A stretch of 64,000 nt of DNA from Minisyncoccota bacterium (GCA_958295675.1 OY282360.1:530026-594025); one strand, 5' to 3'. Positions 14,827 through 64,000 are shown, numbered from the stretch's first letter. Program-made: numbers and translations. The notes: generated by a model not told the origin, from the letters alone.

Positions 14827-14886
14827 TGCCGTCAATCTCTGATTGACGCTGACGGATAGTCGCCACGGAGTGGCGGAATGATGGGG

Positions 14887-14968: not shown

Positions 14969-15006
14969 ATATAAAACAGTATAACAAACAGATATAGCAC
15001 TTCCTT

Positions 15007-17304: not shown

Positions 17305-17305
17305 A

Positions 17306-40300: not shown

Positions 40301-40977
40301 AACCGCGCCTCAACATTAAAACCGCCCTTCGGACACCCGCTAACAAATGCGGTATTTGTATCATCAAAACAGGATGTCGGCTGCCACAACATTCCCTGAA
40401 ATTCAGGATGTGATGTCTTGATATTCGTATCAACAACGGCAATAACAGGTGCGCTGTCAGCGCGGTATGAATCCGGCGGTATCAAACCATACGCTTCTCC
40501 GAGACCCAAAAAAGAGAACGGCCACGCGTAGGTGTTTGCAATAAGCGGATCATTTGACGGCGGTTCGGTCTGCGCGTCGTACGCGAAGTTCGGCTGCGCG
40601 TGCGCGATACCGGCAACAGCGGACACCTCAGCGGACAACGCGGCAACATCAACATGCTCATCAAACGAAAGCAGTGCGGCACCGGTATCAGTAGCAACAT
40701 CTTCCGTGCGAATATCGTCAGTATCAACGCCGTGCTCACGCAATACTTTTTCCACCTCCAGATACAATGCTTCCTTCGCGTCAATAACATGAGTACTACT
40801 AACGGAAACATCGGAATCAATCTCCTCATACACCACAATAATCTGGTTCGGCGCATACACATCAGCGGAAGAATCTTCGGAAACAGTGACTGCACCCTGC
40901 GCGGCGGCGTATGGCACCGACAAACACATACAAAAGAGTAAAAAACAGAAACTGCCGTTCTGCAACGAAATATACAT
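37336..40977 (-). CDS. subtilisin-family (S8) serine protease with C-terminal peptidoglycan-binding domain
   Basis: Signal peptide. Catalytic triad motifs VIAVVDTNI (Asp), HGTAMAGAA (His) and GTSVAAPMVAGTAA (Ser). C-terminal PG_binding_1-like LQQFLNKGGY...GPATHRALIAFQQARGI. Confidence 0.8.
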   Translation of the reverse strand: MYISLQNGSFCFLLFCMCLSVPYAAAQGAVTVSEDSSADVYAPNQIIVVYEEIDSDVSVSSTHVIDAKEALYLEVEKVLREHGVDTDDIRTEDVATDTGAALLSFDEHVDVAALSAEVSAVAGIAHAQPNFAYDAQTEPPSNDPLIANTYAWPFSFLGLGEAYGLIPPDSYRADSAPVIAVVDTNIKTSHPEFQGMLWQPTSCFDDTNTAFVSGCPKGGFNVEARLVNGRTQRVFTNDPEAGFAVHGTAMAGAALGGFNNGKGAFGVAQNSRLMALAAPPSSRFPYKVDKVYTADAVRMINTARHNGADVLSISWARTYPNNSSSSTLSCGTAEEKKQGGFDAMLYAALRDFPGIVTIAAGNSGRKIGTTSDWVVPVDYTESVSDTDGNECWTGLSHVLAVGGVDRNNAVYGGTNYGPHIEILAPAVGVALPSYKSGYSRLQQGSGLGDGSAVPVSATSWSSGTDSGTRYISPIPDAGSETAASAASSYTIGPIDLSFIDPARGERVLLAIRHDCRGEYNHLSYSFSGDGTDYSSPIALHNPATHTFSYAELSGTAHLTSNFHFRFDWSGSPTTGLTKENCKIFDNEFVFFKGPLRADLTHQQELLRGYYRVFSGTSVAAPMVAGTAAMLLEVKPDLTVAETRDILLSGSNTLTAATHAVGGTSGLTSAQVVGGGRVLNTLGALRELKRRYPLLFQPAAPALPALETSSDTGSEDAVTGNTTLSFSGTANAGATVTLTAVKTVDATAYTATGTAVADSADGSYTITLDLTTAADAQGSRIAAAGISGSWTIAAKQSINGSPLSDPSPALTVTVDTVAPTVTAHLSHAGVATDGYINADEAGDGERNTQPIVTAVTVNEDDGVTVTYAVTDTNPGSVCADTLSYTITDIATITAASLSDGIRYICARVRDSAHNTVYSAPLAVTRDTSVPAFVERTVSVPSSRRPEVTITVNHNQTIEETVRFAVSGGGVCDDLQVTGSVIGSGTASHTLRFSGARSNYDDCSLTMIDVAGNAASVSLLLSSFSIRRGSSGGGGGGSRSSYRPPTVSAPRIPESPTVSEQSAAPPVISGVVPVEALPADGFSSLLAPEPLLLPEYDLEIGVSDPGVRALQQFLNKGGYTVAETGPGSVGNESDYFGPATHRALIAFQQARGITPASGYYGPRTRTVMFQVQSDASPSAQALTETQQQELIQSLRREIQRIQQKIQELLEAQARH

Positions 40978-40989: not shown

Positions 40990-42297
40990 TCACGCGATCC
41001 GGGCAATAGTGTTCAAAAACGAATCAGTCACCGTCTCCGGCACTTCAGTACTCCCGACATAGCACACCGCCATAGTATCTGTAACAAAAATATCCTCCGC
41101 GACCCGGCGTACATCCGCAGGCGTTACCGCCCTGATATGCTTCTCGTATTCCTCATCGGACTCCACGGCACCCGTTTGCGCGTACAGCACCATATTCCGT
41201 CCGGCAATACCCTGTGTGCTCTCCTGTTGCACAGCACGGACACCGAGAATGTACTCCCGCGCCTTCCGTAATTCATCATCAGACACCGTATCCCGCAGTA
41301 CAGCGGCGCACTCATCGGCAACGGCTCCCATCACCTCTTCGGTCCGTTTCCCGTTAATGCCCGTATAGATTGAAAAACTGCCGTAATGCGCGTTCATATC
41401 AGCGGACGCATTGATGGTGTAGCAAGCACCGAGATGTTCGCGCACCCGCAGAAACAAACGGGAACTCATAGAACCGCCGAGTACCGTACCAAGCAACTGA
41501 AGCGCATGACGGTCATCGCTGCCGCATGACGGCGCGTACCCGCCGATAACAATATGCGACTGCTCCAAATCAGAACGCACCACATGTACATGCTTCTGTT
41601 TTACACCGACAGCGGATACCGCGACCTGCTCGGTATGCCCGCCGACAGGTGCTGATCGGTACATGCGCTCCAATGCGGCGAACACTTCTTCAGAATCAAA
41701 CTTACCGGCGACAGAAATAATGATATTGCCGGAGACATAATGTTTCCGTAAAAACTGCACGAAGTCATCGCGGGAAAACGACCGGACTGAATCAGCAGTG
41801 CCGAGAATATCATGCTCGGCGGCAGTTCCATGAAACAGTGATTTTTCAACTTCATTACCGGCTTTTGCGGCGGGATCATCCTCGTACATTGCTATCTCCT
41901 CAACGATAACACTCTTTTCTTTTTCAAGTTCACCGGCGGGAAACAGAGAACGCAAAAAAATATCAGAAGTGATATCCATCATATCGCCGATTCTCTCCGC
42001 CCTGCCGAACAGATAGTAGCCGGTATATTCCCTTGAGGTATACGCGTTCCCGACGACACCGGACTCGTCCATGCGCACCAGCAGCTGCGTATAGTCGGGA
42101 TAGGTTTCCGTCCCCTTGAAACACATATGTTCAAAAAAATGAGCCAAACCATGCTCATGCGCCTCCTCATGATTCGCGCCGATATTCACGCCGACCAGCA
42201 CGCACGCCGTCTTTGCGTGCGCATTAGGATCAAAAATAACAGTAATCCCGTTGCTCATCGTGCGTACCTCAGCCATACACCTACCACTATACATCAA
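40990..42297 (-). CDS. M16 (pitrilysin/insulinase) family zinc peptidase
   Basis: Inverted zinc motif HFFEHMCFKG with the downstream glutamate region. Start may be M8 (MAEVRTMSNG). Confidence 0.75.
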   Translation of the reverse strand: MMYSGRCMAEVRTMSNGITVIFDPNAHAKTACVLVGVNIGANHEEAHEHGLAHFFEHMCFKGTETYPDYTQLLVRMDESGVVGNAYTSREYTGYYLFGRAERIGDMMDITSDIFLRSLFPAGELEKEKSVIVEEIAMYEDDPAAKAGNEVEKSLFHGTAAEHDILGTADSVRSFSRDDFVQFLRKHYVSGNIIISVAGKFDSEEVFAALERMYRSAPVGGHTEQVAVSAVGVKQKHVHVVRSDLEQSHIVIGGYAPSCGSDDRHALQLLGTVLGGSMSSRLFLRVREHLGACYTINASADMNAHYGSFSIYTGINGKRTEEVMGAVADECAAVLRDTVSDDELRKAREYILGVRAVQQESTQGIAGRNMVLYAQTGAVESDEEYEKHIRAVTPADVRRVAEDIFVTDTMAVCYVGSTEVPETVTDSFLNTIARIA

Positions 42298-42459: not shown

Positions 42460-45024
42460 ATGCACAGACGAGCAGCAGGCATCCTGCCTGTTTTCCTGCT
42501 GACCGCGACATTCGCGGTCGGCGAAACACAGACGGTACCGCTGTTCGCTCCCGCGAATGACGGTATTCGGCAGGGATTCACGCGAGTCGTGAATCTCGCA
42601 CACCGAGACGGTACGGTCACAATCCGTGCCCGTGACGATGCCGGTGTCCTGCACCGGAGTTCGTTCCGCATCGCTGCATCCGCGGTGTACCACTTCAACT
42701 CAGACGACCTGGAGAACGGCAATGCCGTGAAAGGTATCACCGGTATCGGCAACGGCACCGGTGACTGGCAGCTCGCACTGGACAGTGATCTGCCGATCGC
42801 GGTCACCGCGTACCTGCGTACCGATGACGGCTTTCTCACCGCGATGAACAACACCGTGGCACGAGGCCCTGACGGGGTCCACCGGGTCATGACCTTCAAT
42901 CCCGCCTCAAACGTGAACCAGGAGAGTATGCTCCGGCTGATCAATCGGTCGGGGCGGACCATCACGGTAACCGTGCGGGGTACTGACGATCAGGGTGCAG
43001 CGGGAGACCGTCCCGTGACGGTATCCCTCCGCCCCAACGGTGCACGTACCCTGAGCGCGAAAGACCTGGAGAACGGAGGACTCGGCGACGGAAGCGGTAA
43101 GTGGCGATTGCTCGTCACGGCACCGGAATCCATTGTCGTCATGTCCCTCATGAGCACCAAGGTCGGCTACCTCACGAACCTCTCATCGGCACCGGAAGGC
43201 ACCACGATTCCGCTGTTCACCGCGGTCTCGCGGTTCAGGCAGAGTTTCGCGCGGATCATCAACCGCTCACCGGAAGCGGGCACCGTGACGGTACGCGCCA
43301 GGGATGACTCGGGCACCGAACGGGGCTCGTTCACCATCCCCATCGGCGCCAATCAGGTGCGGCACTTCAACTCCGATGATCTGGAAAACGGCAGTGTCGC
43401 CAAAGGTGTCACCGGTGTCGGCGACGGTACCGGTCACTGGCGGCTGACGGTCTCCGGCGATCTGGACCTACAGGTACTCGCCTACATGCGCACCGATGAC
43501 GGTTTTCTCACCGCACTCCACGATATCGTGGGTGATGCGGGACGGACGCACCAGGTACCCATACTCAACCCGGGCAGTAACACCGACCGGGAGAGCAGTT
43601 TGCGAATAGTCAACACCACGGGTGCCGTGACCACGGTCACCGTCCGCGGCTTTGACGATAGAGGCAGAGAAGGCGACAGCACAGTCCGCATCACCCTGCG
43701 GGGCAATGAAGTGAAAACCTTCACCGCCAAACGGCTGGAGGATCTGGGACTCGGCGACGGCAGCGGTAAGTGGCGGCTCATGGTCACCGCGACCAATCCC
43801 GTCATCCTGCTGTCCCTCATACAGACAACAACCGGGCACCTCACCAACCTCTCCTACACACCGGCAGGCATTCGGGTCATCGCCAGACCGGTGGAAGCAT
43901 CGTTCACCTACGAGGAGGACGACGGCATCCCGTTCGGCATCCGCTTTGACGCCACCGCGTCCAAAGGAGACCTCACGGACTACGCCTGGGACTTCGGGGA
44001 GAACAGTCTGCGGGTTGACACCACGACCGGCACCGGTCCGACCCCCCTGTTTGTCTACGACAGTACCTGGTTCTTCGGGCGTACCCGGGGTGACCACCTC
44101 GGCTACGAGGGTCGCTACCCCGCCACGACGACCTACCCGGTCACCCTGACCGTTACCGACCGCTACGGCGCCACAGACACCCATGCCGAGACAATCACGG
44201 TAACCAACACCCTGTCCTTCGCCGGCATGCGCGACCTCATCGGTCGTATCACCGACGGCGGGCACCGCGGGAAACTCATTATCTCGGAGTTGGGTATCGG
44301 CGAGGCGTTCGAGGGCAGCCATGCCCAACAGACGGTGTATGTGAACATGAAGGAGGAGGGAGTACCCGCGGCGAGTATCGTGGTGCACGGTCCGGGGATC
44401 ACGAACCCGCGCGCACTCGGTTCGTTCGGCATCCTGACCCACCCGGACAACGCCGCCCTGCGCGCCGAGACCCTGGTGGTGAATCTGTCGGTACTGCCCG
44501 CCTTTAACCGATTGAGTGTACCGCACATCCCTGCGCACAATATCATATGGGTGGCGAGTGCGGGCAACCTTGATCCCGACATCGCGGCGTGCGGTCCGAC
44601 CGACCCGCGCATCCGTGATTTCTGGCGGTCTGACCATCCGTACTTCTCCTGTGAGGGGAGGGATCGCAGTCCCGTCTATATCGACACCATGGGCGCAGTC
44701 AGAACCGGCAAGGTGCTGATGGCGACCGCGGCGGTGCGCAGACAGGACGGCACGGTCGTGCCGGATACCGGTGTCATGATGTGCGGCGACACCAGGGAGC
44801 AGTGCTTCGCGGTGGAGCAGTCGAGGATTACCTCGGCATCGGCACCGGCACTCAGCGCGGCGGTGTTCCACCTCTTCCAGACCTACGAGGATGCGGAGGA
44901 TGTGGTGCACGCCCTGAAGTCGTGCGCGACGGATATCGGGGAGCCCGGGGTTGACCGTGAATTCGGTCAGGGGCTCGTTGACTTCCGCTGCGCTGCGGCG
45001 ATGCTGCCGGTTGTTGATCGGTAA
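42460..45024 (+). CDS. secreted ~100-aa-repeat protein with degenerate S8-peptidase-like C-terminal domain (copy 1)
   Basis: Signal peptide. Four tandem ~100-aa repeats (...NSDDLENGxxxKGxTGxGxGTGxWxL...). C-terminal block HNIIWVASAGN ... SRITSASAPALSAAVFHL echoes the subtilase oxyanion/Ser motifs. Confidence 0.6.
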   Translation: MHRRAAGILPVFLLTATFAVGETQTVPLFAPANDGIRQGFTRVVNLAHRDGTVTIRARDDAGVLHRSSFRIAASAVYHFNSDDLENGNAVKGITGIGNGTGDWQLALDSDLPIAVTAYLRTDDGFLTAMNNTVARGPDGVHRVMTFNPASNVNQESMLRLINRSGRTITVTVRGTDDQGAAGDRPVTVSLRPNGARTLSAKDLENGGLGDGSGKWRLLVTAPESIVVMSLMSTKVGYLTNLSSAPEGTTIPLFTAVSRFRQSFARIINRSPEAGTVTVRARDDSGTERGSFTIPIGANQVRHFNSDDLENGSVAKGVTGVGDGTGHWRLTVSGDLDLQVLAYMRTDDGFLTALHDIVGDAGRTHQVPILNPGSNTDRESSLRIVNTTGAVTTVTVRGFDDRGREGDSTVRITLRGNEVKTFTAKRLEDLGLGDGSGKWRLMVTATNPVILLSLIQTTTGHLTNLSYTPAGIRVIARPVEASFTYEEDDGIPFGIRFDATASKGDLTDYAWDFGENSLRVDTTTGTGPTPLFVYDSTWFFGRTRGDHLGYEGRYPATTTYPVTLTVTDRYGATDTHAETITVTNTLSFAGMRDLIGRITDGGHRGKLIISELGIGEAFEGSHAQQTVYVNMKEEGVPAASIVVHGPGITNPRALGSFGILTHPDNAALRAETLVVNLSVLPAFNRLSVPHIPAHNIIWVASAGNLDPDIAACGPTDPRIRDFWRSDHPYFSCEGRDRSPVYIDTMGAVRTGKVLMATAAVRRQDGTVVPDTGVMMCGDTREQCFAVEQSRITSASAPALSAAVFHLFQTYEDAEDVVHALKSCATDIGEPGVDREFGQGLVDFRCAAAMLPVVDR

Positions 45025-45051
45025 CTTCTTTTTTTCGCCTACAAGGCAGTA

Positions 45052-45080
45052 CCCGCGCGGTTATCCGCGCGGGTTTTTTT
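45052..45080 (+). terminator. rho-independent terminator
   Basis: CCCGCGCGG-ttat-CCGCGCGGG followed by T7. Confidence 0.85.
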
Positions 45081-45179
45081 ATTTGCTCTTATATACAGCG
45101 TTGCTAATGTGTTATGGAGTATATGAACAACTGGCAGTGGTACTTTTGTTTCGCTTGAGGGACTGCTGTATGTCCTGAT

Positions 45180-45500
45180 TCTCGTTTGCGTAAATGATGT
45201 GCCACAGGTTTTTGTACTCGCTGCTGGTGACCAGGTGCTCCAGGGACAAGTTCCACAACTCGCACTGGTCGGACTACTTGCCCAGGTACCGTTGGTGCAG
45301 CTGTAGGTGGCGGATCTCTACGGAGAACCGGTACTGTCCCTCGCGGTATCGCTGCTAGCGGTTGTGGATGCGACTCTACCGCTACAGGTCCTACCGCTCA
45401 CGGTCCAGGAGACATCTTTCGGGGGGCAAGGCCGAATTTTGCAGGATCCCGTCCTTGTACTTGTTGACCAGGTACCGTCGTCGGTGCATCTGTAGGTGGC
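45180..45500 (-). pseudogene. decayed fragment of a Cys-repeat surface-protein gene (paralogue of 48152..52222)
   Basis: 45270-45480 aligns at roughly 80-85% identity, with indels, to 48885-49060. Reverse-strand translation gives ...TYRCTDDGTWSTS...VSWTVSGRTCSGRVASTTASSDTARDSTG, which is one Cys-repeat unit. Confidence 0.55.
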
Positions 45501-45566
45501 GAAACACAGACGGTACCGCTGTTCGCTCCCGCGAATGACGGTATCCGGCAGGGATTCACGCGAGTC

Positions 45567-48011
45567 GTGAATCTCGCACACCGAGACGGTACGGTCACGA
45601 TCCGTGCCCGTGACGATGCCGGTGTCCTGCGCCGGAGTTCGTTCCGCATCGCTGCATCCGCGGTGTACCACTTCAACTCAGACGACCTGGAGAACGGCAA
45701 TGCCGTGAAAGGTATCACCGGTATCGGCAACGGCACCGGTGACTGGCAGCTCGCACTGGACAGTGATCTGCCGATCGCGGTCACCGCGTACCTGCGTACC
45801 GATGACGGCTTTCTCACCGCGATGAACAACACCGTGGCACGAGGCCCTGACGGGGTCCACCGGGTCATGACCTTCAATCCCGCCTCAAACGTGAACCAGG
45901 AGAGTATGCTCCGGCTGATCAATCGGTCGGGGCGGACCATCACGGTAACCGTGCGGGGTACTGACGATCAGGGTGCAGCGGGAGACCGTCCCGTGACGGT
46001 ATCCCTCCGCCCCAACGGTGCACGTACCCTGAGCGCGAAAGACCTGGAGAACGGAGGACTCGGCGACGGAAGCGGTAAGTGGCGATTGCTCGTCACGGCA
46101 CCGGAATCCATTGTCGTCATGTCCCTCATGAGCACCAAGGTCGGCTACCTCACGAACCTCTCATCGGCACCGGAAGGCACCACGATTCCGCTGTTCACCG
46201 CGGTCTCGCGGTTCAGGCAGAGTTTCGCGCGGATCATCAACCGCTCACCGGAAGCGGGCACCGTGACGGTACGCGCCAGGGATGACTCGGGCACCGAACG
46301 GGGCTCGTTCACCATCCCCATCGGCGCCAATCAGGTGCGGCACTTCAACTCCGATGATCTGGAAAACGGCAGTGTCGCCAAAGGTGTCACCGGTGTCGGC
46401 GACGGTACCGGTCACTGGCGGCTGACGGTCTCCGGCGATCTGGACCTACAGGTACTCGCCTACATGCGCACCGATGACGGTTTTCTCACCGCACTCCACG
46501 ATATCGTGGGTGATGCGGGACGGACGCACCAGGTACCCATACTCAACCCGGGCAGTAACACCGACCGGGAGAGCAGTTTGCGAATAGTCAACACCACGGG
46601 TGCCGTGACCACGGTCACCGTCCGCGGCTTTGACGATAGAGGCAGAGAAGGCGACAGCACAGTCCGCATCACCCTGCGGGGCAATGAAGTGAAAACCTTC
46701 ACCGCCAAACGGCTGGAGGATCTGGGACTCGGCGACGGCAGCGGTAAGTGGCGGCTCATGGTCACCGCGACCAATCCCGTCATCCTGCTGTCCCTCATAC
46801 AGACAACAACCGGGCACCTCACCAACCTCTCCTACACACCGGCAGGCATTCGGGTCATCGCCAGACCGGTGGAAGCATTGTTCACCTACGAGGAGGACGA
46901 CGGCATCCCGTTCGGCATCCGCTTTGACGCCACCGCGTCCAAAGGAGACCTCACGGACTACGCCTGGGACTTCGGGGAGAACAGTCTGCGGGTTGACACC
47001 ACGACCGGCACCGGTCCGACCCCCCTGTTTGTCTACGACAGTACCTGGTTCTTCGGGCGTACCCGGGGCGCTCGCCACGGCTACGAGGGTCGCTACCCCG
47101 CCACAACGACCTACCCGGTCACCCTGACCGTTACCGACCGCTACGGCGCGGAAGCCACGCACACCGAGCCGATCACGGTAACCAACACCCTGTCCTTCGC
47201 CGGCATGCGCGACCTCATCGGTCGTATCACTGACGATGACGAACACCGCTACAAACTGGTGATCTCGGAGTTGGCTGATGGTGAAGCGTTTGAGGGCAGC
47301 CATGCCCAGCGGACGGTGTATGTGAACATGAAAGAAGAGGGCGTGCCGAAAGCGAACATCCATGTGCACGGTCCGGGGATAACGGACTGGCGCGTAGTGG
47401 ACGGTGCGTACGGCTTCCTGACCCACCCGGACAACGCCGCTCTGCGCGCCGAGACCCTGGTGGTGAACCGGTCGGTACTCCCCGCCTTCAATGAGCTTGC
47501 TGCGGAACACATCGCCGCGCACAATATCATATTTGTGGCGAGTGCCGGTAATGTGAACCACCATAGCGTGAATCAGTGCGATCCGCCGGACAATCCGGAT
47601 CGGGACCTGTGGCGTCCTGACCATTCGTACTTCACCTGTGATGATGGCGGTCGGCGGTGGATGTATACCGCAACGATGGACGCGGTCAGGACCGGTAAGG
47701 TGCTGATGGCGACCGCGGCGGTGCGCAGACAGGACGGCACGGTCGTGCCGGATACCGGTGTCATGATGTGCGGCGACACCAGGGAGCAGTGCTTCGCGGT
47801 GGAGCAGTCGAGGATTACCTCGGCATCGGCACCGGCACTCAGCGCGGCGGTGTTCCACCTCTTCCAGACCTACGAGGATGCGGAGGATGTGGTGCACGCC
47901 CTGAAGTCGTGCGCGACGGATATCGGGGAGCCCGGGGTTGACCGTGAATTCGGTCAGGGGCTCGTTGACTTCCGCTGCGCTGCGGCGATGCTGCCGGTTG
48001 TTGATCGGTAA
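45567..48011 (+). CDS. copy 2 of the repeat/S8-like protein, N-terminally truncated (possible pseudogene)
   Basis: >95% nt identity to copy 1 from GETQTVPLF onward. No signal peptide and no Shine-Dalgarno. The first in-frame start is GTG. The upstream in-frame sequence derives from the Cys-repeat fragment and opens with a stop at 45465. Confidence 0.5.
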   Translation: MNLAHRDGTVTIRARDDAGVLRRSSFRIAASAVYHFNSDDLENGNAVKGITGIGNGTGDWQLALDSDLPIAVTAYLRTDDGFLTAMNNTVARGPDGVHRVMTFNPASNVNQESMLRLINRSGRTITVTVRGTDDQGAAGDRPVTVSLRPNGARTLSAKDLENGGLGDGSGKWRLLVTAPESIVVMSLMSTKVGYLTNLSSAPEGTTIPLFTAVSRFRQSFARIINRSPEAGTVTVRARDDSGTERGSFTIPIGANQVRHFNSDDLENGSVAKGVTGVGDGTGHWRLTVSGDLDLQVLAYMRTDDGFLTALHDIVGDAGRTHQVPILNPGSNTDRESSLRIVNTTGAVTTVTVRGFDDRGREGDSTVRITLRGNEVKTFTAKRLEDLGLGDGSGKWRLMVTATNPVILLSLIQTTTGHLTNLSYTPAGIRVIARPVEALFTYEEDDGIPFGIRFDATASKGDLTDYAWDFGENSLRVDTTTGTGPTPLFVYDSTWFFGRTRGARHGYEGRYPATTTYPVTLTVTDRYGAEATHTEPITVTNTLSFAGMRDLIGRITDDDEHRYKLVISELADGEAFEGSHAQRTVYVNMKEEGVPKANIHVHGPGITDWRVVDGAYGFLTHPDNAALRAETLVVNRSVLPAFNELAAEHIAAHNIIFVASAGNVNHHSVNQCDPPDNPDRDLWRPDHSYFTCDDGGRRWMYTATMDAVRTGKVLMATAAVRRQDGTVVPDTGVMMCGDTREQCFAVEQSRITSASAPALSAAVFHLFQTYEDAEDVVHALKSCATDIGEPGVDREFGQGLVDFRCAAAMLPVVDR

Positions 48012-48038
48012 CCTCTTTTTTTCGCCTACAAGGCAGTA

Positions 48039-48067
48039 CCCGCGCGGTTATCCGCGCGGGTTTTTTT
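48039..48067 (+). terminator. rho-independent terminator (duplicate of 45052..45080)
   Basis: Same hairpin followed by T7. Confidence 0.85.
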
Positions 48068-48151
48068 ACTACCTGCGTTAGTTATATACACAAGCAATAT
48101 GCTACACACCCTAAATCTGACACACTGCGTTCGCCGGTCTTCCAATCATCA

Positions 48152-51100
48152 TTAGGATGTCGGACACCCGCTCGTGGTGCAGGCATTACCGGAGTGTTGG
48201 TAGGTACCGGCAGTGGCAGCATCAGTGGTACTTGTGGTGCACTGACAGGGACCCTGATTGCAAGTACCGATACTACTTCCTCCGGTCCAGGTTTGGTTGT
48301 TACAGCTGTAGCTTCTGGAACCCTGATAATCTCCGTCAGTATCTCGGGCAACAACAGTTCCATTCGTGGTTCTTGCGCTCAAAGTAGTGCTGCACGATCC
48401 CCATGTGACAGATCTCGCTGAGCATCCGGGTGGTTTCGCCACAGAGCAGGTGTCAATGGTTACGCCACCGTAGGAACACCGCCATTTGTAGTGCGTAGTC
48501 GTAGTCATCGCATAGCCACCACTAGCGTACCCAGGGCTGCAGGTATTTCTGGTTGTGCCGCATCCGGGTGGTTTCTTCTTGGAGCAGCGAGGAGAGTTGT
48601 AGCCTTTAGGAGATTTGCTGTCTCCGCTCGTTCCATCACACTGCCATCTGTAGTGCGTGTCCGTGTCAGTATACGTCTTGTCATTGTGTGTACCGTGTAA
48701 GCACCCGTTCCGCTCGCTGTTATTGCATACACCGTTCACCGGACACGCTATTTCCCTTTGACATGGTCCACCAGGAACACGCCAAGTGGGTCCTTGGTAG
48801 TATAGCCGGACACCGTTAAGAGCGGGATCGCCGGTGCCTACTGTACACACACACGCACCAGGACCGCATTTCGCCCCCGTATTCGGACTACTTGCCCAGT
48901 CCCCGTCGGTGCAGCTGTAGGTGGCGAATCCCCGATTATGACCGGTACTGTCTATCGCGGTACCGCTGCTAGCGGTTGTGGATGCGAGGGTACTGTTGCA
49001 GGTGTATTCAATGTTCTCGTCCTGATCATCGGGCACTGTCCAGGAGACAGTGTTCAAGGGGCAACTTATAGGTTGGCAGCTCGCAGCGGTCGGACCACTC
49101 CATGTTTCGTCGTTACAACTGTAGGTCGCGCTGCCGGTGTAGCCAGCAGATTTAGTATTGGCAACTACCTTACTTCCGCTTGCACTTGCTGTTCCTGTGC
49201 TTCCACCACATTGAGTTCCCCAAGTTACATCTTTATCCTCACATCCCGGTTTCTTTATGTCACAATACGCTATCTCAGTGTCGGGCTTTCCTATGCAACA
49301 CCAACGGTCAAGCGTAGTGGTATCTTGACATCTCGTGCCGGTGTTTGATTTGCGCCCGACTAAGCATTCATCTACTTCAGCATTGTTGCATACAGGTGTT
49401 TGTGGACAATTATTCGCCTCGTTGCAGGCACCGCTGCCGTCAGACCAGGTGCCGGCGTTCGTAGCATCGGTTTTTGATGTAGTGCAGTTGCAGGTTTTTG
49501 TCGGACAGTTATTCGCCGTGACGGTGCAGGCACCGCTGCCGTCAGACAAGGTGCCTTTGTTCGCGGCATCGGTTTTTGATGCGGTGCAGACACAAGGAAC
49601 AGGAGTGCATCCACTACCACAACACTGTGATTGGGTGCTTGAACCTGAGCAGGTGCCGCAGGTTGACTCGGTTACGGTTTTACTTCTTGATCTGCTTTGG
49701 GAGCCATTTGAACATGTACTCCAATCACTCCAAGGTCCCCATTGACAATTTGTCGCCGGTTTCGTGCCGGTCGTTGATCGTGAACCGCAGGTTCTGGACT
49801 GGGTGAATCTCTTGCCGCTACAGACCGTGTTTCGTGCCGGTGACCATGTCCCACTTTGGGGTTTTGTCCCGGTCGTCAACCGACTTGTTGCACAGTTATT
49901 ACACTCAGTGTTGCAGGTTCTGAACTGGGTGAATCTCGTGCCGCTACAGACCGTGTTTCGTGCCGGTGACCAGGAACCGCATTTAGGGCTCTTCGGACAG
50001 TTATTTGCCGAGACGGTGCAGGTATTGCCGGTGGTACTGCAAGTACCGGCGTTCGTAGCGTCTGTTTTTGATGTAGTGCAGTTGCAGGTGCCGCACGGTT
50101 TTTCCTTTTCGCAGACAGGAGAGTTTTTTCCGCCATTCCGTCCGTCGCAGCGCCATTTGTAGTGCGTGGTCGTGTCAGCCACCGCGGAGTCATTGGCATC
50201 ATTGTAGAGCGTGCCGGACGAGCACCTGTTCTGCCTGCTGGTATCGCATACGCCGTCTTGCAGACACCCACTCGTGGTGCAGGCATTCGTGCTGTCAGCA
50301 TCATCCCATGAGCCATTGTCGTTACATTTGTAAAATCCGCCACCACCCGTTGATCCATCAGTGTCCAATAGATTAGCGTATGCACCGGAAGGTGTAATTG
50401 AGCGGGAAAATCTGCAAATTCTGTTGTTGTCTTCACTCCATGTGACTATATCGGCGGGACAGGATGTGGATGAGCAAGTCGCACCGGTTCCGCTTAACCA
50501 TATTGAGTCATGCATATTGTCACTCCAATGTCTCCAGAAAATCCAAGAAGCATCGTATCTACTAAACATGGTTCTCCAGGTACCATTAACACATCTGTAG
50601 GCGGCGACACCGATTGTTGGTTTGGTGGCATCCCTCGCGACGCTGCCGCCACCATGTCGTGTTGTGGTTCGGGTGCCGGTGCAGGTGTGACTGCCTACTG
50701 TCCAATTGACCGTACCACCGGCACATGTTCTGTCGCACAATGCGAAAGATGGCTCGTCGCTCCAGGTGCCATTGGTACAGAGGTACTTCGCACTGCCGCG
50801 TGATGTTCCTTCGGTACTCCGTATGAAGACCTCTCCGCCGGAAGGTGCCATAGGTCGGGACGCTGTGCAAGTCCTGCCGTTCTTGGTCCAGCTGACTGTA
50901 TCAGCGGCGCAGGATGTCGTCGCACTTGTGCACCACGCGAACAGCGGGTTGCTCAAGGTACCATCATTGCAGTCGTAAATGGCTCTGCCGCGTGTCGTTC
51001 CAGTCGTGTCCCACACGGTGGTTGGATTTTCACCTATATCGGCTTCAGGAGTTACTTCTGGCAAGGAGCCCGAACAGGTCTTGCCGTTCACGGTCCATCT

Positions 51101-52222
51101 GACAGTACGACCGGCGCAGGATCTCTTGCACCATGTATGAGGTGTGGCACGGGTACCGGCGGTTGTGCTGTCGGTTGCGGACGGGGTGCAATTACAGGGT
51201 GGATCTCCATATCCGCAACTCATGCTAGTTGCGATCCAGTCGCCGTTGTTACAGCTATAGGTCGCGCTACCGGTTGACGGTCCGGTGCTATCAGTTGCAG
51301 TATCGCTGCTACCGGAGTTTGTCTCGTCTCGGGAACCGGTGCAGTCGTGATTGTCCACGCTCCAATCAACACTACCGCCTGAACACTTGAGAGGAGGAAG
51401 AGTTGTAGATTCGCAACTTGTGTTAGTCGGTTCGGTCCAGGCACCGTTGTTGCAGCTATAGGTCGCGCTACCGGTTGACGGTCCGGTGCTATCAGTTGCA
51501 GTATCGCTGCTACCGGAGTTTGTCTCGTCTCGGGAACCGGTGCAGGTGTGACTGCCTACTGTCCAGGTGACCTCATCGTCTTCTTGGCAGTGGGGAGGAT
51601 CGTCTGCACATGATGCGCTCGTTGGTTCTCCCCATGTCCTGTCATTATTACAGTGATAGGTCGCGCTGCCGGTGGGCGGTCTGTTGCTATCAATTGCAGT
51701 ATCGCTACTGCCGACCACTGTTGTGGTTCGGGAACCGGTGCAGGTCTTGTTGTTCACAGTCCAGCTGACACTTCCGCCGGAGCAGGATGGAACGGTAGCA
51801 GCAACCACCGGCACCACGATACCGCATGAGGTACTTTGTGTCCCTTTCGTCACCGTCACATAGTACGGTGAGTTGTACGGGTTGGCGATGTCTCCTGCGT
51901 TAATGGACAGGGTATCTGAGGTCATTGCGGTCGTTTCCTCACGCAGTATTCTGCTCTGCGTGTCAAACTTCCAGCGGTAGGTATAGTCACCGGCAGCGGA
52001 GAAGTTATCCGTGGTCACCGTTAAGGTGAACGACTGTGCCGTTGTCGGCGATGCGGGTGAGACCGACACTGCACAGGAAGGGACGGTCTGAATGGTCGCA
52101 CAGTCCAGCGACCCGTCATTGTTGACACCGCGGACATACTCTCCCGTGCCGCATACTTGGTTCACTCCCGCTTTCTGAACACTGGCACAGGTAACCTGTC
52201 TGACCCCGTTGACCGTGGTCAC
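48152..52222 (-). CDS. giant Cys-rich multi-repeat surface protein (1356 aa)
   Basis: At least 10 copies of a ~60-aa 4-Cys unit (C..VSWTV..TC[TS]GSR...SSDTATDSTG...ATYSCNNG.W...C). THYKWRCDG-type repeats. A TSP1-like WGPWSDWSTCS motif. Nearly identical internal 160-bp DNA duplications. First in-frame start is GTG with no signal peptide. Confidence 0.6.
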   Translation of the reverse strand: MTTVNGVRQVTCASVQKAGVNQVCGTGEYVRGVNNDGSLDCATIQTVPSCAVSVSPASPTTAQSFTLTVTTDNFSAAGDYTYRWKFDTQSRILREETTAMTSDTLSINAGDIANPYNSPYYVTVTKGTQSTSCGIVVPVVAATVPSCSGGSVSWTVNNKTCTGSRTTTVVGSSDTAIDSNRPPTGSATYHCNNDRTWGEPTSASCADDPPHCQEDDEVTWTVGSHTCTGSRDETNSGSSDTATDSTGPSTGSATYSCNNGAWTEPTNTSCESTTLPPLKCSGGSVDWSVDNHDCTGSRDETNSGSSDTATDSTGPSTGSATYSCNNGDWIATSMSCGYGDPPCNCTPSATDSTTAGTRATPHTWCKRSCAGRTVRWTVNGKTCSGSLPEVTPEADIGENPTTVWDTTGTTRGRAIYDCNDGTLSNPLFAWCTSATTSCAADTVSWTKNGRTCTASRPMAPSGGEVFIRSTEGTSRGSAKYLCTNGTWSDEPSFALCDRTCAGGTVNWTVGSHTCTGTRTTTRHGGGSVARDATKPTIGVAAYRCVNGTWRTMFSRYDASWIFWRHWSDNMHDSIWLSGTGATCSSTSCPADIVTWSEDNNRICRFSRSITPSGAYANLLDTDGSTGGGGFYKCNDNGSWDDADSTNACTTSGCLQDGVCDTSRQNRCSSGTLYNDANDSAVADTTTHYKWRCDGRNGGKNSPVCEKEKPCGTCNCTTSKTDATNAGTCSTTGNTCTVSANNCPKSPKCGSWSPARNTVCSGTRFTQFRTCNTECNNCATSRLTTGTKPQSGTWSPARNTVCSGKRFTQSRTCGSRSTTGTKPATNCQWGPWSDWSTCSNGSQSRSRSKTVTESTCGTCSGSSTQSQCCGSGCTPVPCVCTASKTDAANKGTLSDGSGACTVTANNCPTKTCNCTTSKTDATNAGTWSDGSGACNEANNCPQTPVCNNAEVDECLVGRKSNTGTRCQDTTTLDRWCCIGKPDTEIAYCDIKKPGCEDKDVTWGTQCGGSTGTASASGSKVVANTKSAGYTGSATYSCNDETWSGPTAASCQPISCPLNTVSWTVPDDQDENIEYTCNSTLASTTASSGTAIDSTGHNRGFATYSCTDGDWASSPNTGAKCGPGACVCTVGTGDPALNGVRLYYQGPTWRVPGGPCQREIACPVNGVCNNSERNGCLHGTHNDKTYTDTDTHYRWQCDGTSGDSKSPKGYNSPRCSKKKPPGCGTTRNTCSPGYASGGYAMTTTTHYKWRCSYGGVTIDTCSVAKPPGCSARSVTWGSCSTTLSARTTNGTVVARDTDGDYQGSRSYSCNNQTWTGGSSIGTCNQGPCQCTTSTTDAATAGTYQHSGNACTTSGCPTS

Positions 52223-52292
52223 CTGCAGAAACTGTCCCGCAGGACAGTTCGTGGATTCCAGCAGTGCCTGCTCCGCGGAAATACATTCCAGT

Positions 52293-52424
52293 CCGTTGTC
52301 AGTTAAGCTGAGGATTCATTATCCGCGCAGGCGATTTGTGCGTTTGTCATGCCGTATGACACGAACAGCATGCTGAGTATACCTATAGCAAGTACAACTT
52401 GCAGGATTTTGTGGGTAATGTGCA
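52293..52424 (-). pseudogene. orphan signal-peptide ORF, out of frame with the giant gene
   Basis: MHITHKILQVVLAIGILSMLFVSYGMTNAQIACADNESSA* lies 70 nt upstream of the giant gene's GTG, in a different frame. Confidence 0.45.
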
Positions 52425-52482
52425 TATATACTTGTAGTGTATATCGCAGGGAAATAGAGTTTTTTTGGTGGTGGAAAAACAC

Positions 52483-56835: not shown

Positions 56836-59367
56836 TTAAAATGAAGATACATAGGTCAGTATCATATCACGGGTCCGCCGATCCAAAACACCCGTTACCG
56901 GCACACCGTTCACGCGCTGAAAACTCCGAAGCGCGCGTTCAGTTGACGAGCCGAATGTGTTAACTTCATTCCCGGGACTGCCGGCACCGGATCGTGAGAC
57001 CGTATACCCGTTATTGTTGAGAAATACCTGCAGCCGATATACCTCTTCATCGGTATCGCCGATTCGCAGTTCATCGGAACCGGTCGGCACTACAACACCG
57101 AGATTTTCCCGGGTCTCTTCCACAACCTCGTCGCGTGATCTGGAAACTTCCTGATCCTCATCGGCGGATTGCTCCTCATCGGCGGTAACAACTCGCTCAA
57201 CAACAACCTCGCCCGGCAATCTGGGAGCAGTCAGACCTCTCAGTTCCGCGGCGCGGCGCTGTGCATCGGCATGCACCGTCGCTTCGTCAAAAATGACCAA
57301 ACGCTCATCTTTCTTTTCCGCATCATCCGCAGCACTGCGCAGCTTGGCATCAACATCCGCAATCAATGCGTTTATCCGTTCGGTTAAACTTTCCAAAATT
57401 GTCTTTCGTTCCGAAAGTGTGTCAACTGATTCTGCCTGTGAACCGGCAGCACTTTCTGAAGTTGTTTCTTCAGATGAACATGTAACAGGAATGGAATCGT
57501 ATATATATAAAGCACCGGTATCCCGTTCGGCGGTATCGTGCTGCGGCGCGCCGACAACAAGATGCCGACCGTCAAACGCCACGCTTGTGCCGAATCTGTC
57601 ACCGGACTTGACCATCTCCCCGGAGGTTGTCTTCCGCAGAGTCCATTCTGCATCTCCGTGTGTATAGGTGTAGACAAGTCCTGTCCTGTCACCGTTCTCA
57701 TCTTCAGCACCCGGCGCGCCGACAACCAACACACCGTTTGAATATGCCAACGATGTACCGAAGTGCTGTGAAAATCCGTTTTCGGGAGGGGTAATTTCCT
57801 GCTGCAGCTGCCACAAGTCGCCCTGACGCGTGTAGACATACACGGCACCGCGTCCTTTCTGGGCGGCACCGACAAACAAATTACCGTCGCCGAAAAGAAT
57901 TTCCGAACCGAATGTGCCTTCTGAGTCAGTATCCGGCGGCACAATTTTCTTCTCGTTCCAACGCGACCCATCAAATGCGTACACATATACCGCACCGGCA
58001 TCAGCACCACTGATAAGATCCCCGGGAGCACCGATCGCTATAACATCGCCATCAATGGCGATACCGGCACCGAACTGCTGACCCCGGGCAGTATCCGAAG
58101 CGGTTAAGCGAACGGAGCGAACCCATTGATCATTCCGGCGTGTATAGACATACACATACCCGCTCTTATCGCGCCCTTCGGCACCGATAGCGAGTGTATT
58201 TCCGTCAACGGCAATACTTCTGCCGAACAAATCATACGGTGCGGTCGTGGCCGATAGAAGCGCGGAACGAAACAGGAGTGACGAATCAGACCGCCGATAC
58301 ACATACACAGAACCGGACTGATGTCCGCCATGATGTGCTTTCGGCACACCGACAATGACATCCTGACCGTCAGACACGGCAACCATCCGGCGGGTGCCGG
58401 TAGAACGGTACTCCTGTTCAACAACCGTACCGGACGGTTTCCACGACGAACCGTTATCGGTGTATAGATACGCCTTGTGAATACCGGTACCGGAAACAAG
58501 GGTATCTCTATTGATACTGACATTTTCCCCGAGTTGTGTTTTTCTCTCCGGATTTTCCGGCACCAATTTCTGAGTCATGGTATAGGTAACACACTCGTAT
58601 AACATTTCAGCGGCTTCATCTTCTTGCGCGGTAACTGTTGCTTTCACCGGCGGTTTCTCAACAGATTTCGGTACTGCAATGATAATAGGTTCCGCAAGCG
58701 TGCCCCGCTGACTCTCATGGCTGCCCCGGCGAATAACCGCGGCAAAATGATTCTCCCCGACAGCCAATTCATCCGCGCTGATAGAAGGAAAAGAAACTGA
58801 ATTGCCGGTTACTTCTTCAGGCGTTACAACCCGCATACGAATCTCAGAATCATTCAAAAAAACAGAAACACTGTCTCCGGTCAAAAAATTTCCCGAAACC
58901 GCGATACTGTACGAATCAGCAGGCGCATCGGCATCGGCGGATTCCGGTTCAACAATAATGGACGGCTGTGCCGGGACACCGACTATCGTCAGCTCAAACG
59001 GCTCCGTTTCCTGAAGTGTAGCACCGTTACGAGCCAATTTCGCGACAACATTATTCACACCGGTCACAAAAACATCGGTTGATATATTATCAACAATAAC
59101 CTCACCGCCCTCAGTAACATCATCCGCACCGATCACCTTCGCGGTGATAAATGAATCATTGCTGAATATATTTATAACATCATTCTCCTGAAACGCGCCG
59201 AACACGCGAACCGCGACAACGGATGTATTATGTTCGTTCCTAGAGAAACCGATAATACTGAATGATGTTTCTTGTGCTGAGACCTTGACGGCAAATAAGA
59301 CAAGGCATACCAGCATAAACAGAACTGCACGGACAAAATTCCTATTAAAACGACTGTACGCTTTCAT
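56836..59367 (-). CDS. FG-GAP/beta-propeller repeat surface protein with C-terminal peptidoglycan-binding domain
   Basis: Signal peptide. Repeated FG..DG..D units (LFGRSIAVDGNTLAIGA, FGAGIAIDGDVIAIGAPGD, FGTSVAFDGRHLVVGAP). C-terminal LQVFLNNNGY...RALRSFQRVNGV. Confidence 0.65.
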   Translation of the reverse strand: MKAYSRFNRNFVRAVLFMLVCLVLFAVKVSAQETSFSIIGFSRNEHNTSVVAVRVFGAFQENDVINIFSNDSFITAKVIGADDVTEGGEVIVDNISTDVFVTGVNNVVAKLARNGATLQETEPFELTIVGVPAQPSIIVEPESADADAPADSYSIAVSGNFLTGDSVSVFLNDSEIRMRVVTPEEVTGNSVSFPSISADELAVGENHFAAVIRRGSHESQRGTLAEPIIIAVPKSVEKPPVKATVTAQEDEAAEMLYECVTYTMTQKLVPENPERKTQLGENVSINRDTLVSGTGIHKAYLYTDNGSSWKPSGTVVEQEYRSTGTRRMVAVSDGQDVIVGVPKAHHGGHQSGSVYVYRRSDSSLLFRSALLSATTAPYDLFGRSIAVDGNTLAIGAEGRDKSGYVYVYTRRNDQWVRSVRLTASDTARGQQFGAGIAIDGDVIAIGAPGDLISGADAGAVYVYAFDGSRWNEKKIVPPDTDSEGTFGSEILFGDGNLFVGAAQKGRGAVYVYTRQGDLWQLQQEITPPENGFSQHFGTSLAYSNGVLVVGAPGAEDENGDRTGLVYTYTHGDAEWTLRKTTSGEMVKSGDRFGTSVAFDGRHLVVGAPQHDTAERDTGALYIYDSIPVTCSSEETTSESAAGSQAESVDTLSERKTILESLTERINALIADVDAKLRSAADDAEKKDERLVIFDEATVHADAQRRAAELRGLTAPRLPGEVVVERVVTADEEQSADEDQEVSRSRDEVVEETRENLGVVVPTGSDELRIGDTDEEVYRLQVFLNNNGYTVSRSGAGSPGNEVNTFGSSTERALRSFQRVNGVPVTGVLDRRTRDMILTYVSSF

Positions 59368-62400: not shown

Positions 62401-62512
62401 TGTTCTGGCGACGAGCTACTCTCCCGCGCATGCAGTACCATCGCCCCTGGAGGGCTTAACTTCCGTATTCGGAATGAGAACGGGTGTGACCCCTCCGGTT
62501 TCATCACCAGAA
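62401..62512 (-). rRNA. rrf: 5S ribosomal RNA
   Basis: Reverse complement GUUCUGGUGAUGAAACCGGAGGGGUCACACCCGUUCUCAUUCCGAAUACGGAAGUUAAGCCCUCCAGGGGCGAUGGUACUGCAUGCGCGGGAGAGUAGCUCGUCGCCAGAAC matches the bacterial 5S consensus (CCGAACACGGAAGUUAAGC, GAGAGUAGG). Confidence 0.9.
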
Positions 62513-62707
62513 CAAAATAGTGGTGTGATTATATTTTTACTATTGCAATACGCATGGGCAATCCGCTACAGAAACGATTATTACATTTCTCACGAAAAGA
62601 ATCGACTAATTAGTACTCCTCTGCTAAACGCATCTCTGCGCGTACACATAGAGCCTATCAACCTGATCATCTCTCAGGGGTCTCAAATGATACCTAATCT
62701 CAAGGTG

Positions 62708-62740
<33 letters not shown>

Positions 62741-62799
62741 CTGCCCAACATAGCTACCCAGCTGTGCCGCTGGCGCGACAACTGGTACACCAGAGGTTA

Positions 62800-62831
<32 letters not shown>

Positions 62832-62870
62832 TCCTTTCAAGTATCAACGACTGCGGAAGATAGAGAACCA

Positions 62871-62914
<44 letters not shown>

Positions 62915-62928
62915 TTGGAGAACAGCCA

Positions 62929-62982
<54 letters not shown>

Positions 62983-63017
62983 GAACTCCGTCGTCGATAT
63001 GAACTCTTAGACGGAAC

Positions 63018-63049
<32 letters not shown>

Positions 63050-63558
63050 ATGATCTCTGACCGCATCTAAAGCGTATCAGAGGTTCACTAAGTCCTGCTT
63101 TCGCATCTGCTCGCGATGTCCCGCTTGCAGTCAAGCTCCCATATACCTTTACGCTATCGGCACGGTTTCCATTCGCGCCTAGGGAACCTTTGAACTCCTC
63201 CGTTACCTTTTGGGAGGATAGCGCCCCACAAAAACTACCCGCCACGCACTGTCCCTGTACGGTTTTGCCGCACGGGTGAGAGATTACAGACACACAGAGA
63301 GGTATTTCACTGGCGACTCCACTGTTCCCAAGAGAACAGCTTCAAAGTCTCCCTCCTATGCTACGCAGTATATCCGTAACCCCAATACGAAGCTGTAGTA
63401 AAGCTCCACGGGGTCTTTCTGTCTTTCCGCAGTAAGCCGGCATCTTTACCGGCATTGCATTTTCGCCGGGCTCCTCCCCGAGACAGTACTTCACTCGTTA
63501 CGCCATTCGTGCGCGTCCGAAATTACCGGACGAGGTATTTCGCTACCTTAGGACCGTT

Positions 63559-64000
63559 CATTCGTGTTAGCTTTATGTCTCCATAAAGATCGGACTATAT
63601 CTTCACGATATATTATCGTGTTCCGCGTGTAGTCTCTGAGGTTCTGTCTTGGTATACATCATGTTGTGTATACTTCCTTTTCCTGCCCCGTCCTTCATTC
63701 AGTTGTTCACGGAGTTGAATAATAGTTTTCAACCCCCGAGCGGTAACATGCTCTTTTCGGTATATTCTTTCAACAATATTTGAAAAAGTTACAAAATCTT
63801 TCTTTTTCTTTGCTGAAAGAAACCTGAACTTTCTGAAGAAAGGAAGGATGGTATCGTGCAGAGCGGTTATATTAACCACTTCATAACACACAACACCATC
63901 ATCTCTCTCACGCAGGGTTCCACATTTAAGTGTATTCTTTATCTTTGCCAGTATTACCCTGTCTTTCTGAGAGATGTTGAACGAAGCGTTCACTTTCCAT
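63559..64000 (-). mobile_element. group I intron in 23S rRNA helix 69 (E. coli position ~1917), partial
   Basis: Exon identity stops after ...TTCGCTACCTTAGGACCGTT at 63558. The next base is the expected intron-terminal G. AT-rich sequence with an embedded ORF follows to the window edge. Confidence 0.75.
63613..63993 (-). CDS. intron-encoded LAGLIDADG-type homing endonuclease
   Basis: 126-aa ORF inside the intron. ...LHDTILPFFRKFRFLSAKKKKDFVTFSNIVERIYRKEHVTARGLKTIIQLREQLN is the characteristic C-terminal half of single-motif LAGLIDADG enzymes. Confidence 0.65.
   Translation of the reverse strand: MNASFNISQKDRVILAKIKNTLKCGTLRERDDGVVCYEVVNITALHDTILPFFRKFRFLSAKKKKDFVTFSNIVERIYRKEHVTARGLKTIIQLREQLNEGRGRKRKYTQHDVYQDRTSETTRGTR

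Follow-up and report, generated by a model that had tools for sequence, protein, structure and literature searches.

A giant gene for a cysteine-rich modular protein with a divergent thrombospondin type-1 repeat, probably disrupted by a single-base deletion, in a Paceibacterota/Kaiserbacteria-like bacterium

We analysed a giant open reading frame (ORF) in a 64,000-nucleotide (nt) stretch of the genome of a Minisyncoccota bacterium (OY282360.1:530026-594025; hereafter called the window, in whose coordinates all positions are given). This ORF is located on the minus strand (48152..52222), starts with GTG and comprises 1356 codons. The original prediction, which had been made from the sequence alone, regarded its product as a huge secreted adhesin whose signal peptide lies out of frame in a small ORF upstream. 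We find that both ORFs belong to one gene of ~1424 codons (48152-52425), in which a frameshift has severed the signal peptide from the mature protein. This gene is probably one of two paralogs for a Sec-exported, disulfide-rich, modular protein of ~1400-1800 amino acids (aa) that is extracellular or located at the surface. Judging from its sequence, the copy as sequenced cannot be exported. The best reading of the frameshift is a real and very recent inactivating deletion of a single base, which would make the copy a pseudogene or an off-allele within the sampled population, and we favor this reading with some reserve.

The evidence for a split gene comes from comparison with an intact paralog. 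Our homolog search returned the product of the giant ORF itself (P0001, an identical protein present in NCBI/ENA) and one further protein of 1808 aa (P0002), which is 97% identical over 78% of the query. According to its protein record, P0001 is carried on a contig of 724,510 nt; the record of P0002 has an identical value for the longest contig, and P0002 is apparently encoded on the same 724.5-kb contig. The N-terminus of P0002 (MHITHKILQVALAISILSMLFVSYGMTDAQTACADGEVLTLASTGLEC...) consists of a signal peptide that is fused in frame to the mature part; its longer start (MHITHKILQVALAISILSMLFVSYGMTDAQTACADGEVLTLASTGLECVSAEQALLESNNCPEGQFLQVTTVNG...) contains the same signal peptide and the same mature N-terminus as are found in the window. 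In a tblastn search of the window, aa 1-37 of P0002 aligned to 52425-52315 in one frame (86.5% identity), while aa 38-1127 aligned to 52315-49043 in the adjacent frame, with 96.7% identity over 1091 aa and no other break. If one residue is inserted at this junction, the N-termini of the two proteins align without any gap (89% identity over 224 aa), and we therefore place the ancestral gene at 48152-52425. Since P0002 carries the same signal peptide in frame, it is the window copy that lacks one base at ~52315.

The 5' end of the ancestral gene is represented by the small ORF (52303..52425, minus strand; ATG at 52425, TAA at 52303-52305), which encodes the 40-codon leader MHITHKILQVVLAIGILSMLFVSYGMTNAQIACADNESSA and ends 80 nt upstream of the GTG. 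Three-frame translations showed that the leader is in another frame, and they agree with the junction placed by tblastn. The small ORF is thus as real as had been proposed, while its reported size of 43 codons, its position (52293-52424) and its distance of 70 nt needed correction. Its TAA stop codon was created by the frameshift. The giant frame is open from 52315 onwards, directly after two consecutive stop codons (ILSLTDNGLECISAEQALLESTNCPAGQFLQV...), and contains no ATG, GTG or TTG between 52315 and 52222 before the GTG at 52222. This start-less in-frame extension (52223..52315, minus strand; ILSLTDNGLECISAEQALLESTNCPAGQFLQ) is homologous to aa 38-68 of P0002. The frameshift site itself lies at 52306..52317 on the minus strand, where the window copy is one base short of the paralog (GAA[N]TC CTC). 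The junction reads GAA TCC TCA GCT TAA, which corresponds to GAA [N]TC CTC AGC TTA A minus one base. The lost base is probably the G of GTC, because P0002 has E-V-L at this position.

We inspected the leader by eye for a positively charged n-region, a hydrophobic region of ~15-20 residues and small residues at positions -3 and -1, as expected for a Sec signal peptide or signal anchor. All of these features are present: a basic n-region (MHITHK) is followed by a hydrophobic core of 19 residues (ILQVVLAIGILSMLFVSYG) and by MTNA/Q with its TNA/Q site, and this arrangement is conserved in P0002. The original prediction had pointed to a lipobox-like sequence instead. By eye, the leader has A-Q-I-A-C (A-Q-T-A-C in P0002), to be compared with the consensus [LVI][ASTVI][GAS]C. 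This reading is weak, because position -3 is occupied by Q; moreover, the Cys does not directly follow the hydrophobic region, as the polar stretch SYGMTNAQ lies in between. From its sequence, an A-x-A-type signal peptidase I site (TNA/Q) would fit better than a lipobox, and we do not maintain the assignment as a lipoprotein. No sortase signal or C-terminal anchor was evident when the C-termini were inspected by eye.

A homopolymer error, which had also been suggested as the cause of the frameshift, was rejected, since the site reads GAA/TCCTC with no run longer than 2. Some other assembly or consensus error would mean that the genome has the extra base and encodes an intact 1424-codon paralog of P0002 including its signal peptide. 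We regard this as the main rival of a real deletion, possible but less likely. It would agree with an ORF that has no other interruption and shares 96.7% identity with the intact paralog. Moreover, polishing is difficult where two copies share 97% identity over 3.3 kb and reads may be attributed to the wrong one. On the other hand, the site is neither a homopolymer nor a simple repeat, and no other frameshift was found in ~20 conserved genes of the window or in the 1091-aa alignment with the paralog. These ~20 conserved or housekeeping genes are intact, and those for TopA, SecD, SecF, FtsW, PheS, PheT, RpsB, Tsf (EF-Ts), a class-I release factor, DprA, RelA/SpoT and VIT1 cover their Pfam profiles essentially end to end. 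Because conserved genes are full-length and the 3.3-kb match to P0002 contains no other frameshift, the assembly is not generally indel-prone.

An assembly error also has to be weighed against the state of the nearby genes, which carry independent and clearly biological damage in the form of an in-frame stop and a recombinational truncation. Next to the giant gene, in the region 42460-48068, a tandem duplication was found (42516-45081 versus 45495-48068; 94.6% identity over 2585 bp). The first duplicate encodes an 854-aa protein with a signal peptide and weak similarity to PKD domains and to subtilase C-termini. In the second one, called as 814 aa from a GTG at 45567, both the start codon and the signal peptide are gone. 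Between the two, at the duplication junction, we identified the remnant of a third member of the giant gene family (45150..45560, minus strand). It contains two type A units, one of them partial and the other complete but interrupted by an in-frame stop (DSTGSP-stop-RSATYSC), and a type D unit that is 88% identical to those of P0002 (the unit types are described below). Decay around the giant gene is unmistakably biological. Based on the quality of the assembly and on this decay at the locus, a real deletion is favored over an assembly error, and we infer that the deletion is of biological origin. Some observations weigh against our interpretation of the locus as an adhesin gene with a recent deletion. 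Apart from the missing base, the ORF is flawless over 4.1 kb, which fits a recent mutation and a consensus or assembly error equally well. No second assembly of the population and no other DNA across the junction was found by looking for contigs that encode P0001 or P0002, by scanning genome contigs with P0002, by scanning metagenomes with a junction pattern allowing N{0,1}, or by scanning metagenome proteins. Furthermore, our assessment of the signal peptide is based on visual inspection and on its conservation in the paralog, and adhesion was deduced from domain types only.

As a third explanation for the split gene, the original prediction had considered programmed frameshifting. A programmed -1 (or +2) ribosomal frameshift, or transcriptional slippage, could join the leader to the giant ORF and thereby regulate the amount of adhesin. 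The two frames indeed overlap by 10 nt (52306-52315; ATCCTCAGCT), and a -1 or +2 shift within this overlap, which is what rejoining them requires, would result in a protein colinear with P0002. But the overlap contains neither an X XXY YYZ heptamer nor a run of A or T. The 98 nt downstream fold with a minimum free energy of -29.1 kcal/mol, compared to -25.9 +/- 3.2 for shuffled sequences (z = -0.99), and 27 of 200 shuffles fold as well. The arrangement is also not conserved, since P0002, the sole homolog with the same N-terminus, is in frame. Without a slippery site, a stable structure or conservation, programmed frameshifting is unsupported and we consider it hardly credible.

Alternatively, the giant ORF could be expressed without a leader, from the GTG at 52222 or from a non-canonical start, and its product could function inside the cell or leave it by a route other than Sec. 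The GTG-initiated ORF is what gene callers report, as seen from the presence of P0001 in the databases. Against this, conservation with the mature region of P0002 extends over the 31 codons that precede the GTG, which places this GTG inside the ancestral protein. In addition, a protein with 103 Cys residues, composed of modules that are found behind signal peptides elsewhere, is not expected to fold in the reducing cytoplasm. Leaderless expression therefore appears very improbable to us. If, as we prefer, a single base was deleted 37 codons into the gene (~nt 52315), this deletion would separate the signal peptide from the rest of the protein. The disrupted locus would then yield only the 40-aa leader peptide and, at best, a leaderless cytoplasmic protein from GTG 52222.

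The product of the 1356-codon ORF contains 7.6% Cys, while 39% of its residues are T, S or G. Neither Pfam nor NCBIfam gave a match for the whole protein, so that it could not be assigned to a family in this way. We could dissect it into 23 small Cys-containing modules of five types: ten of type A, six of type B, four of type C, two of type D and a single thrombospondin type-1 repeat (TSR). Profile-profile comparison (hhalign) revealed no relationship among the five types. The mosaic of at least three repeat types described earlier is thereby borne out and extended, types B and D having not been separated before; the ~60-aa unit with four Cys, for which at least 10 copies had been claimed, occurs exactly 10 times. 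Type A units (~58 aa, with individual units of roughly 58-66 aa) contain four Cys and follow the pattern C-x6-W-x6-C-x~28-G-x-A-x-[YF]-x-C-x-x-G-x-W-x6-8-C. Type B (35 aa; CxCTxSxTDAxNAGTxxxxxxxCxVxANNCP) is present in six copies, one of them degenerate. Type C corresponds to the THYKWRCDG units noticed before and could be verified in four copies of ~50 aa (G-V-C-x4-R-N-x-C-x2-G-...-T-H-Y-x-W-x-C-x-G-x2-G-G-x5-C). Type D is found twice, with ~35-43 aa and the pattern W-S-P-x3-T-V-C-x-G-x2-F-T-Q-x-R-x-C...G-T-K.

All modules are encoded on the minus strand. The protein starts with a non-repeat region (aa 1-146; 51785..52222) that is common only to P0002 and has no Pfam match. It is followed by type A units 1-7 (aa 147-648; 50279..51784), located at aa 147-205, 212-270, 280-336, 369-431, 438-496, 500-583 and 588-648, with one type B unit embedded among them (aa 341-370; nt 51113-51202). 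The central part consists of type C unit 1 (aa 653-710; 50093..50266; ...THYKWRCDGRNGG...), type B unit 2 (aa 711-745; 49988..50092) and type D units 1-2 (aa 746-822; 49757..49987; WSPARNTVCSGxRFTQxRTC...GTKP). Next come the TSR (aa 825-872; 49607..49750; NCQWGPWSDWSTCS...CCGSGC), in which the 4-residue xxCG loop is lacking, and type B units 3-4 (aa 875-942; 49397..49600), for which Tandem Repeats Finder reported a 102-nt period at 49393-49589. Towards the C-terminus, type C unit 2 (aa 939-994; 49241..49408) is followed by type A units 8-9 (aa 994-1049 and 1054-1119; 48866..49243), the degenerate type B unit (aa 1122-1163) and type C units 3-4 (aa 1160-1262; 48437..48745). The protein ends with type A unit 10 (aa 1267-1321) and a terminal type B unit (aa 1324-1356; together 48155..48424).

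Some of these units are also duplicated at the DNA level. Units A2 and A3 correspond to a repeat of 117 nt (51228-51344 versus 51430-51545; 95.7% identity), which can be extended to 133 nt at 92% with a spacing of 201 nt; repeat detection indicated a third copy at 70%. The duplication proposed for 51280-51540 is hence real, and shorter than the 160 bp given for it. The two type D units form another DNA repeat (49787-49857 and 49913-49983; 90%). The colinearity of P0002 with the window copy stops inside type A unit 8, at ~nt 49043. Past this unit, P0002 has an array of seven double type D units of 83 aa each, which are near-identical (six are identical) and have no equivalent in the window copy. 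Such arrays show that repeats expand within the family, in agreement with what had been predicted.

By its sequence and its predicted fold, the segment at aa 825-872 is a divergent, loop-deleted TSR that is 4 residues short. The TSP1-like motif CQWGPWSDWSTCS, pointed out in the original prediction, is located at aa 826-838 (nt 49709-49747). A search of the whole protein with Pfam TSP_1 (PF00090) gave no hit at E <= 1. The excised 48-aa unit reached 17.5 bits (E = 0.0048, profile positions 2-44 of 49), which is below the gathering threshold of 21.6 bits. The motif thus falls short of the Pfam cutoff, the outcome named in advance as speaking against it, and is nevertheless recognised as a genuine TSR by stronger tests. 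A phmmer search of PDB sequences returned the TSRs of thrombospondin-1, F-spondin and C9 as the top seven matches (best E = 0.0027), with alignments spanning the Trp ladder, the Arg strand and the third strand. We also searched a library of 1.84 billion proteins exhaustively with aa 653-990, which gave 237 matches at E <= 1e-3. The TSR stretch (query positions 170-228) was matched at E = 4.5e-19 to 1e-8 by P0070 (4.5e-19), P0110 (1.9e-11), P0112, P0116, P0121 and others, and these proteins all carry PF00090 (E = 1e-14 to 1e-95). With a hidden Markov model built from validated TSRs only, aa 825-872 reached 36.1 bits (profile positions 1-52 of 53), and no other part of the protein gave a score.

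An alignment of 53 TSRs showed that the unit keeps the near-invariant positions C6, W11, C17, G20, R24, R26, C38 and C48. The Trp ladder is present (WGPWSDW together with SRSRS), in the conserved columns W11, R24 and R26. As for the six conserved Cys with three disulfides that are typical of a TSR, the unit retains C6, C17, C38 and C48, has lost the one in the xTCG loop and contains additional Cys in STCGTC and QCC. Compared to known TSRs (PF00090; thrombospondin-1, properdin, F-spondin, C6-C9, coadhesin and SCO-spondin), the unit shares the W-x-x-W-x-x-W ladder, the S-R-S-R-S strand and the C-x-G-x-x-x-x-x-x-C third strand. It differs in that CSxTCG is shortened to CS--NG, in its extra Cys and in being present as one copy only. 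An AlphaFold2 (AF2) model of the unit has three strands and a pLDDT of 77. In a Foldseek search with this model, the top ~35 PDB matches were all TSRs (probabilities up to 1.00, E 0.05-2), among them those of C6-C9, UNC5A, properdin, F-spondin, Sema5A and BAI1; this fold match has to be read with the caveat that the input alignment for AF2 itself consisted of TSRs. The model superimposes on thrombospondin-1 (3r6b) with a TMq of 0.64, a root-mean-square deviation of 2.4 A and 36% identity. Because the reciprocal searches, the profile from validated TSRs and the predicted fold agree, we accept the unit as a TSR despite the Pfam result.

The other modules are not restricted to the giant protein. 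Type A arrays of up to 27 units occur in 22 other proteins from diverse bacteria, including, by their source names, an alphaproteobacterium and a Hyphomicrobium. Among the 174 proteins that were gathered, type C was detected 682 times in 111 proteins, with arrays of up to 41 units, and type D 275 times in 45 proteins. Type B is limited to two other proteins. The modules are combined in various ways (A+C, C+D, C+D+TSR, D+TSR), and A, C, D and TSR occur together in P0001 and P0002 only. The other module-array proteins whose N-termini were read start with a signal peptide. Single units did not match any Pfam family consistently (88 A, 47 C and 41 D units scanned), and no sequence relatives of types C and D were found in the PDB.

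A close parallel to the TSR-containing part is the uncharacterised bacterial P0039 family with ~40 relatives, in which three type C units are followed by alternating type D units and TSRs. This family shares with the giant protein types C and D, a TSR of the CQWGPWSxWS type, the signal peptide and the order C, D, TSR. Unlike the giant protein, it has no type A units and its TSRs are canonical, scoring above the Pfam threshold (70.7 bits). Relatives of P0039 are encoded on contigs of up to 4.3 Mb, and three loci were read (on contigs of 1.6 Mb and 3.7 Mb and on a 19.7-kb scaffold). The two large contigs are bacterial, and on one of them rpsB, tsf, frr, pnp and infB are located close by. At each of the three loci, genes for a reprolysin-like (ADAM-type) metalloprotease and for leucine-rich repeat (LRR) proteins adjoin the P0039-type gene (L004 1476-7868; L005 6001-13466; L006 1151-8913), a conserved arrangement that resembles an ADAMTS protein split into separate genes. 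This reprolysin/LRR cluster is absent from the window.

For type A, the AF2 model of unit A2 has a pLDDT of 92, and the confidently predicted fold appears to have no match in the PDB. We considered whether type A belongs to the Sushi or complement control protein (CCP) modules. Like these, it has ~60 aa and four Cys, is all-beta and ends with ...G-x-x-x-[YF]-x-C-x-x-G-x-W-x(5-8)-C. A sequence match, confined to the last third of the type A profile (tGsatYsCnnGtWs...C), was obtained with the C-terminal halves of consecutive CCP modules in HpARI (E = 3.7e-5) and in factor H (E = 0.02). In contrast to CCP modules, in which the second Cys follows ~30 residues after the first, this distance is 15 residues in type A. 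Pfam Sushi (PF00084) was grazed by two of the 88 type A units (best E = 0.018), and no CCP structure was among the 54 Foldseek matches of the model. With a local match to the C-terminal motif, two weak Pfam hits and no CCP structure, membership in this family was rejected. Type D was compared with TSRs as well. Three of 41 units match PF23260 (TSP1_2, SEMA5B-like) weakly (best E = 0.0018), and hhalign aligned the D profile to the TSR profile over 12 columns with 4% probability, placing C-x-G-x2-F-T-Q-x-R-x-C on the third TSR strand. These matches hint that type D might be a reduced TSR.

A bacterium of the Candidate Phyla Radiation (CPR), to which we assign the host below, presumably lacks the enzymes for C-mannosylation and O-fucosylation that are known from eukaryotes. 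Our literature search on TSRs in bacteria or in the CPR returned nothing specific. In eukaryotes, the TSR fold is known for its role in adhesion and for binding glycosaminoglycans (PMC3417536). In its intact form, the giant protein would be taken across the membrane by its Sec signal peptide or anchor. Its ~100 Cys would lock the 23 modules into a stiff, T/S/G-rich, stalk-like extracellular array. As an adhesin, this array would present binding surfaces, including the Trp-Arg ladder of the TSR, to a partner cell or to a matrix. The proposal of a huge secreted adhesin-like repeat mosaic is in line with the high Cys content, with modules that stand behind signal peptides elsewhere and with the TSR. 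From these features we infer export, disulfide formation and adhesion of the intact form. Attachment to a partner cell or matrix would be its most likely role, because of the module types including the TSR, the array architecture and the precedent in the CPR.

This precedent comes from the Peribacteria, for which large Cys-rich extracellular proteins that vary between strains have been described and a role in attachment has been proposed (Anantharaman et al. 2016; PMC4736985). As characterised in the passages of that paper on these proteins, they resemble the giant protein in having >1000 aa, several percent Cys, a signal peptide, no functional annotation, variation between strains or paralogs and a proposed function in attachment. 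The likeness is one of description; our protein belongs to a Paceibacterota/Kaiserbacteria-like lineage, and the same passages mention neither a TSR nor modules A-D. A more far-reaching scenario, which we consider unlikely, starts from the window TSR and from the canonical TSRs of the C+D+TSR proteins beside reprolysin-like proteases ('ADAMTS in pieces'). These could be part of a set of matrix-type adhesion modules that prokaryotes share and have exchanged with animals or protists, and the CPR cell would use its module for attachment to a partner that is a eukaryote or associated with one. In this scenario, types A, C and D represent unrecognised families of this toolkit, with D possibly a minimal TSR derivative. 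The leader frameshift would represent the on/off allele of a variable surface antigen, for which paralogs and fragments serve as recombination cassettes.

With respect to annotation, 48152-52425 should be treated as one disrupted gene, in place of a leaderless 1356-aa protein and an unrelated small ORF. A large Cys-rich secreted CPR repeat protein broken by an indel is of a kind already known, and the frameshift itself is ordinary. New in detail are the dissection into modules, the demonstration of a TSR in this lineage and the four modules without a curated family. The giant protein thereby provides a dissected example of the large Cys-rich extracellular proteins of the CPR, a poorly understood group with a presumed role in attachment to hosts. 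Modules A-D recur in secreted proteins of bacteria (A, C and D widely) and are candidates for family definition and structural work. Type A stands out among them, owing to its confident predicted fold without a match in the PDB.

Judged by its genes, the host organism is a small-genome member of the Patescibacteria (CPR) that is Paceibacterota/Kaiserbacteria-like. For TopA of the window, the identity amounts to 78% with the homolog on a 641-kb 'Candidatus Paceibacterota' chromosome and to 75% with the one in a 'Candidatus Kaiserbacteria' metagenome-assembled genome. Upstream of the giant gene, ftsW-like, secD and secF genes are located on the same strand, and the leader ATG (52425) lies 58 nt past the secF stop codon. 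Downstream, the giant gene is convergent with its neighbor, and a terminator consisting of a hairpin and a T-run is placed between the two (48038-48061). Close to the secDF-ftsW cluster, another large surface protein of 843 aa is encoded (56836-59367, minus strand), which contains FG-GAP repeats and a C-terminal peptidoglycan-binding domain.

Further observations concern the remainder of the window. Between 36000 and 48000, the G+C content is 0.52-0.62, compared to 0.42-0.50 across most other parts of the window, and this block may be acquired DNA. It contains the 16S rRNA gene (35627-37089), which is unlinked to the 23S and 5S genes, and the duplicated 854-aa genes. Two peptidases are also encoded in this block, one of the S8 type that carries a peptidoglycan-binding domain (37336-40977) and one that is M16-like (40990-42297). 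In the 23S gene (62589-64000; region 62403-64000), a group I intron (63571-63791) was detected that scores 50 bits, exactly the Rfam threshold. A PheT homolog (15007-17391, minus strand) with B3_4, B5 and FDX-ACB domains shows an NlpC/P60 match at aa 367-428, an odd insertion for the beta subunit of a tRNA synthetase. Finally, two tandem tRNA-Leu(CAA) genes are located in a 99%-identical 144-nt repeat at 14758-14969.

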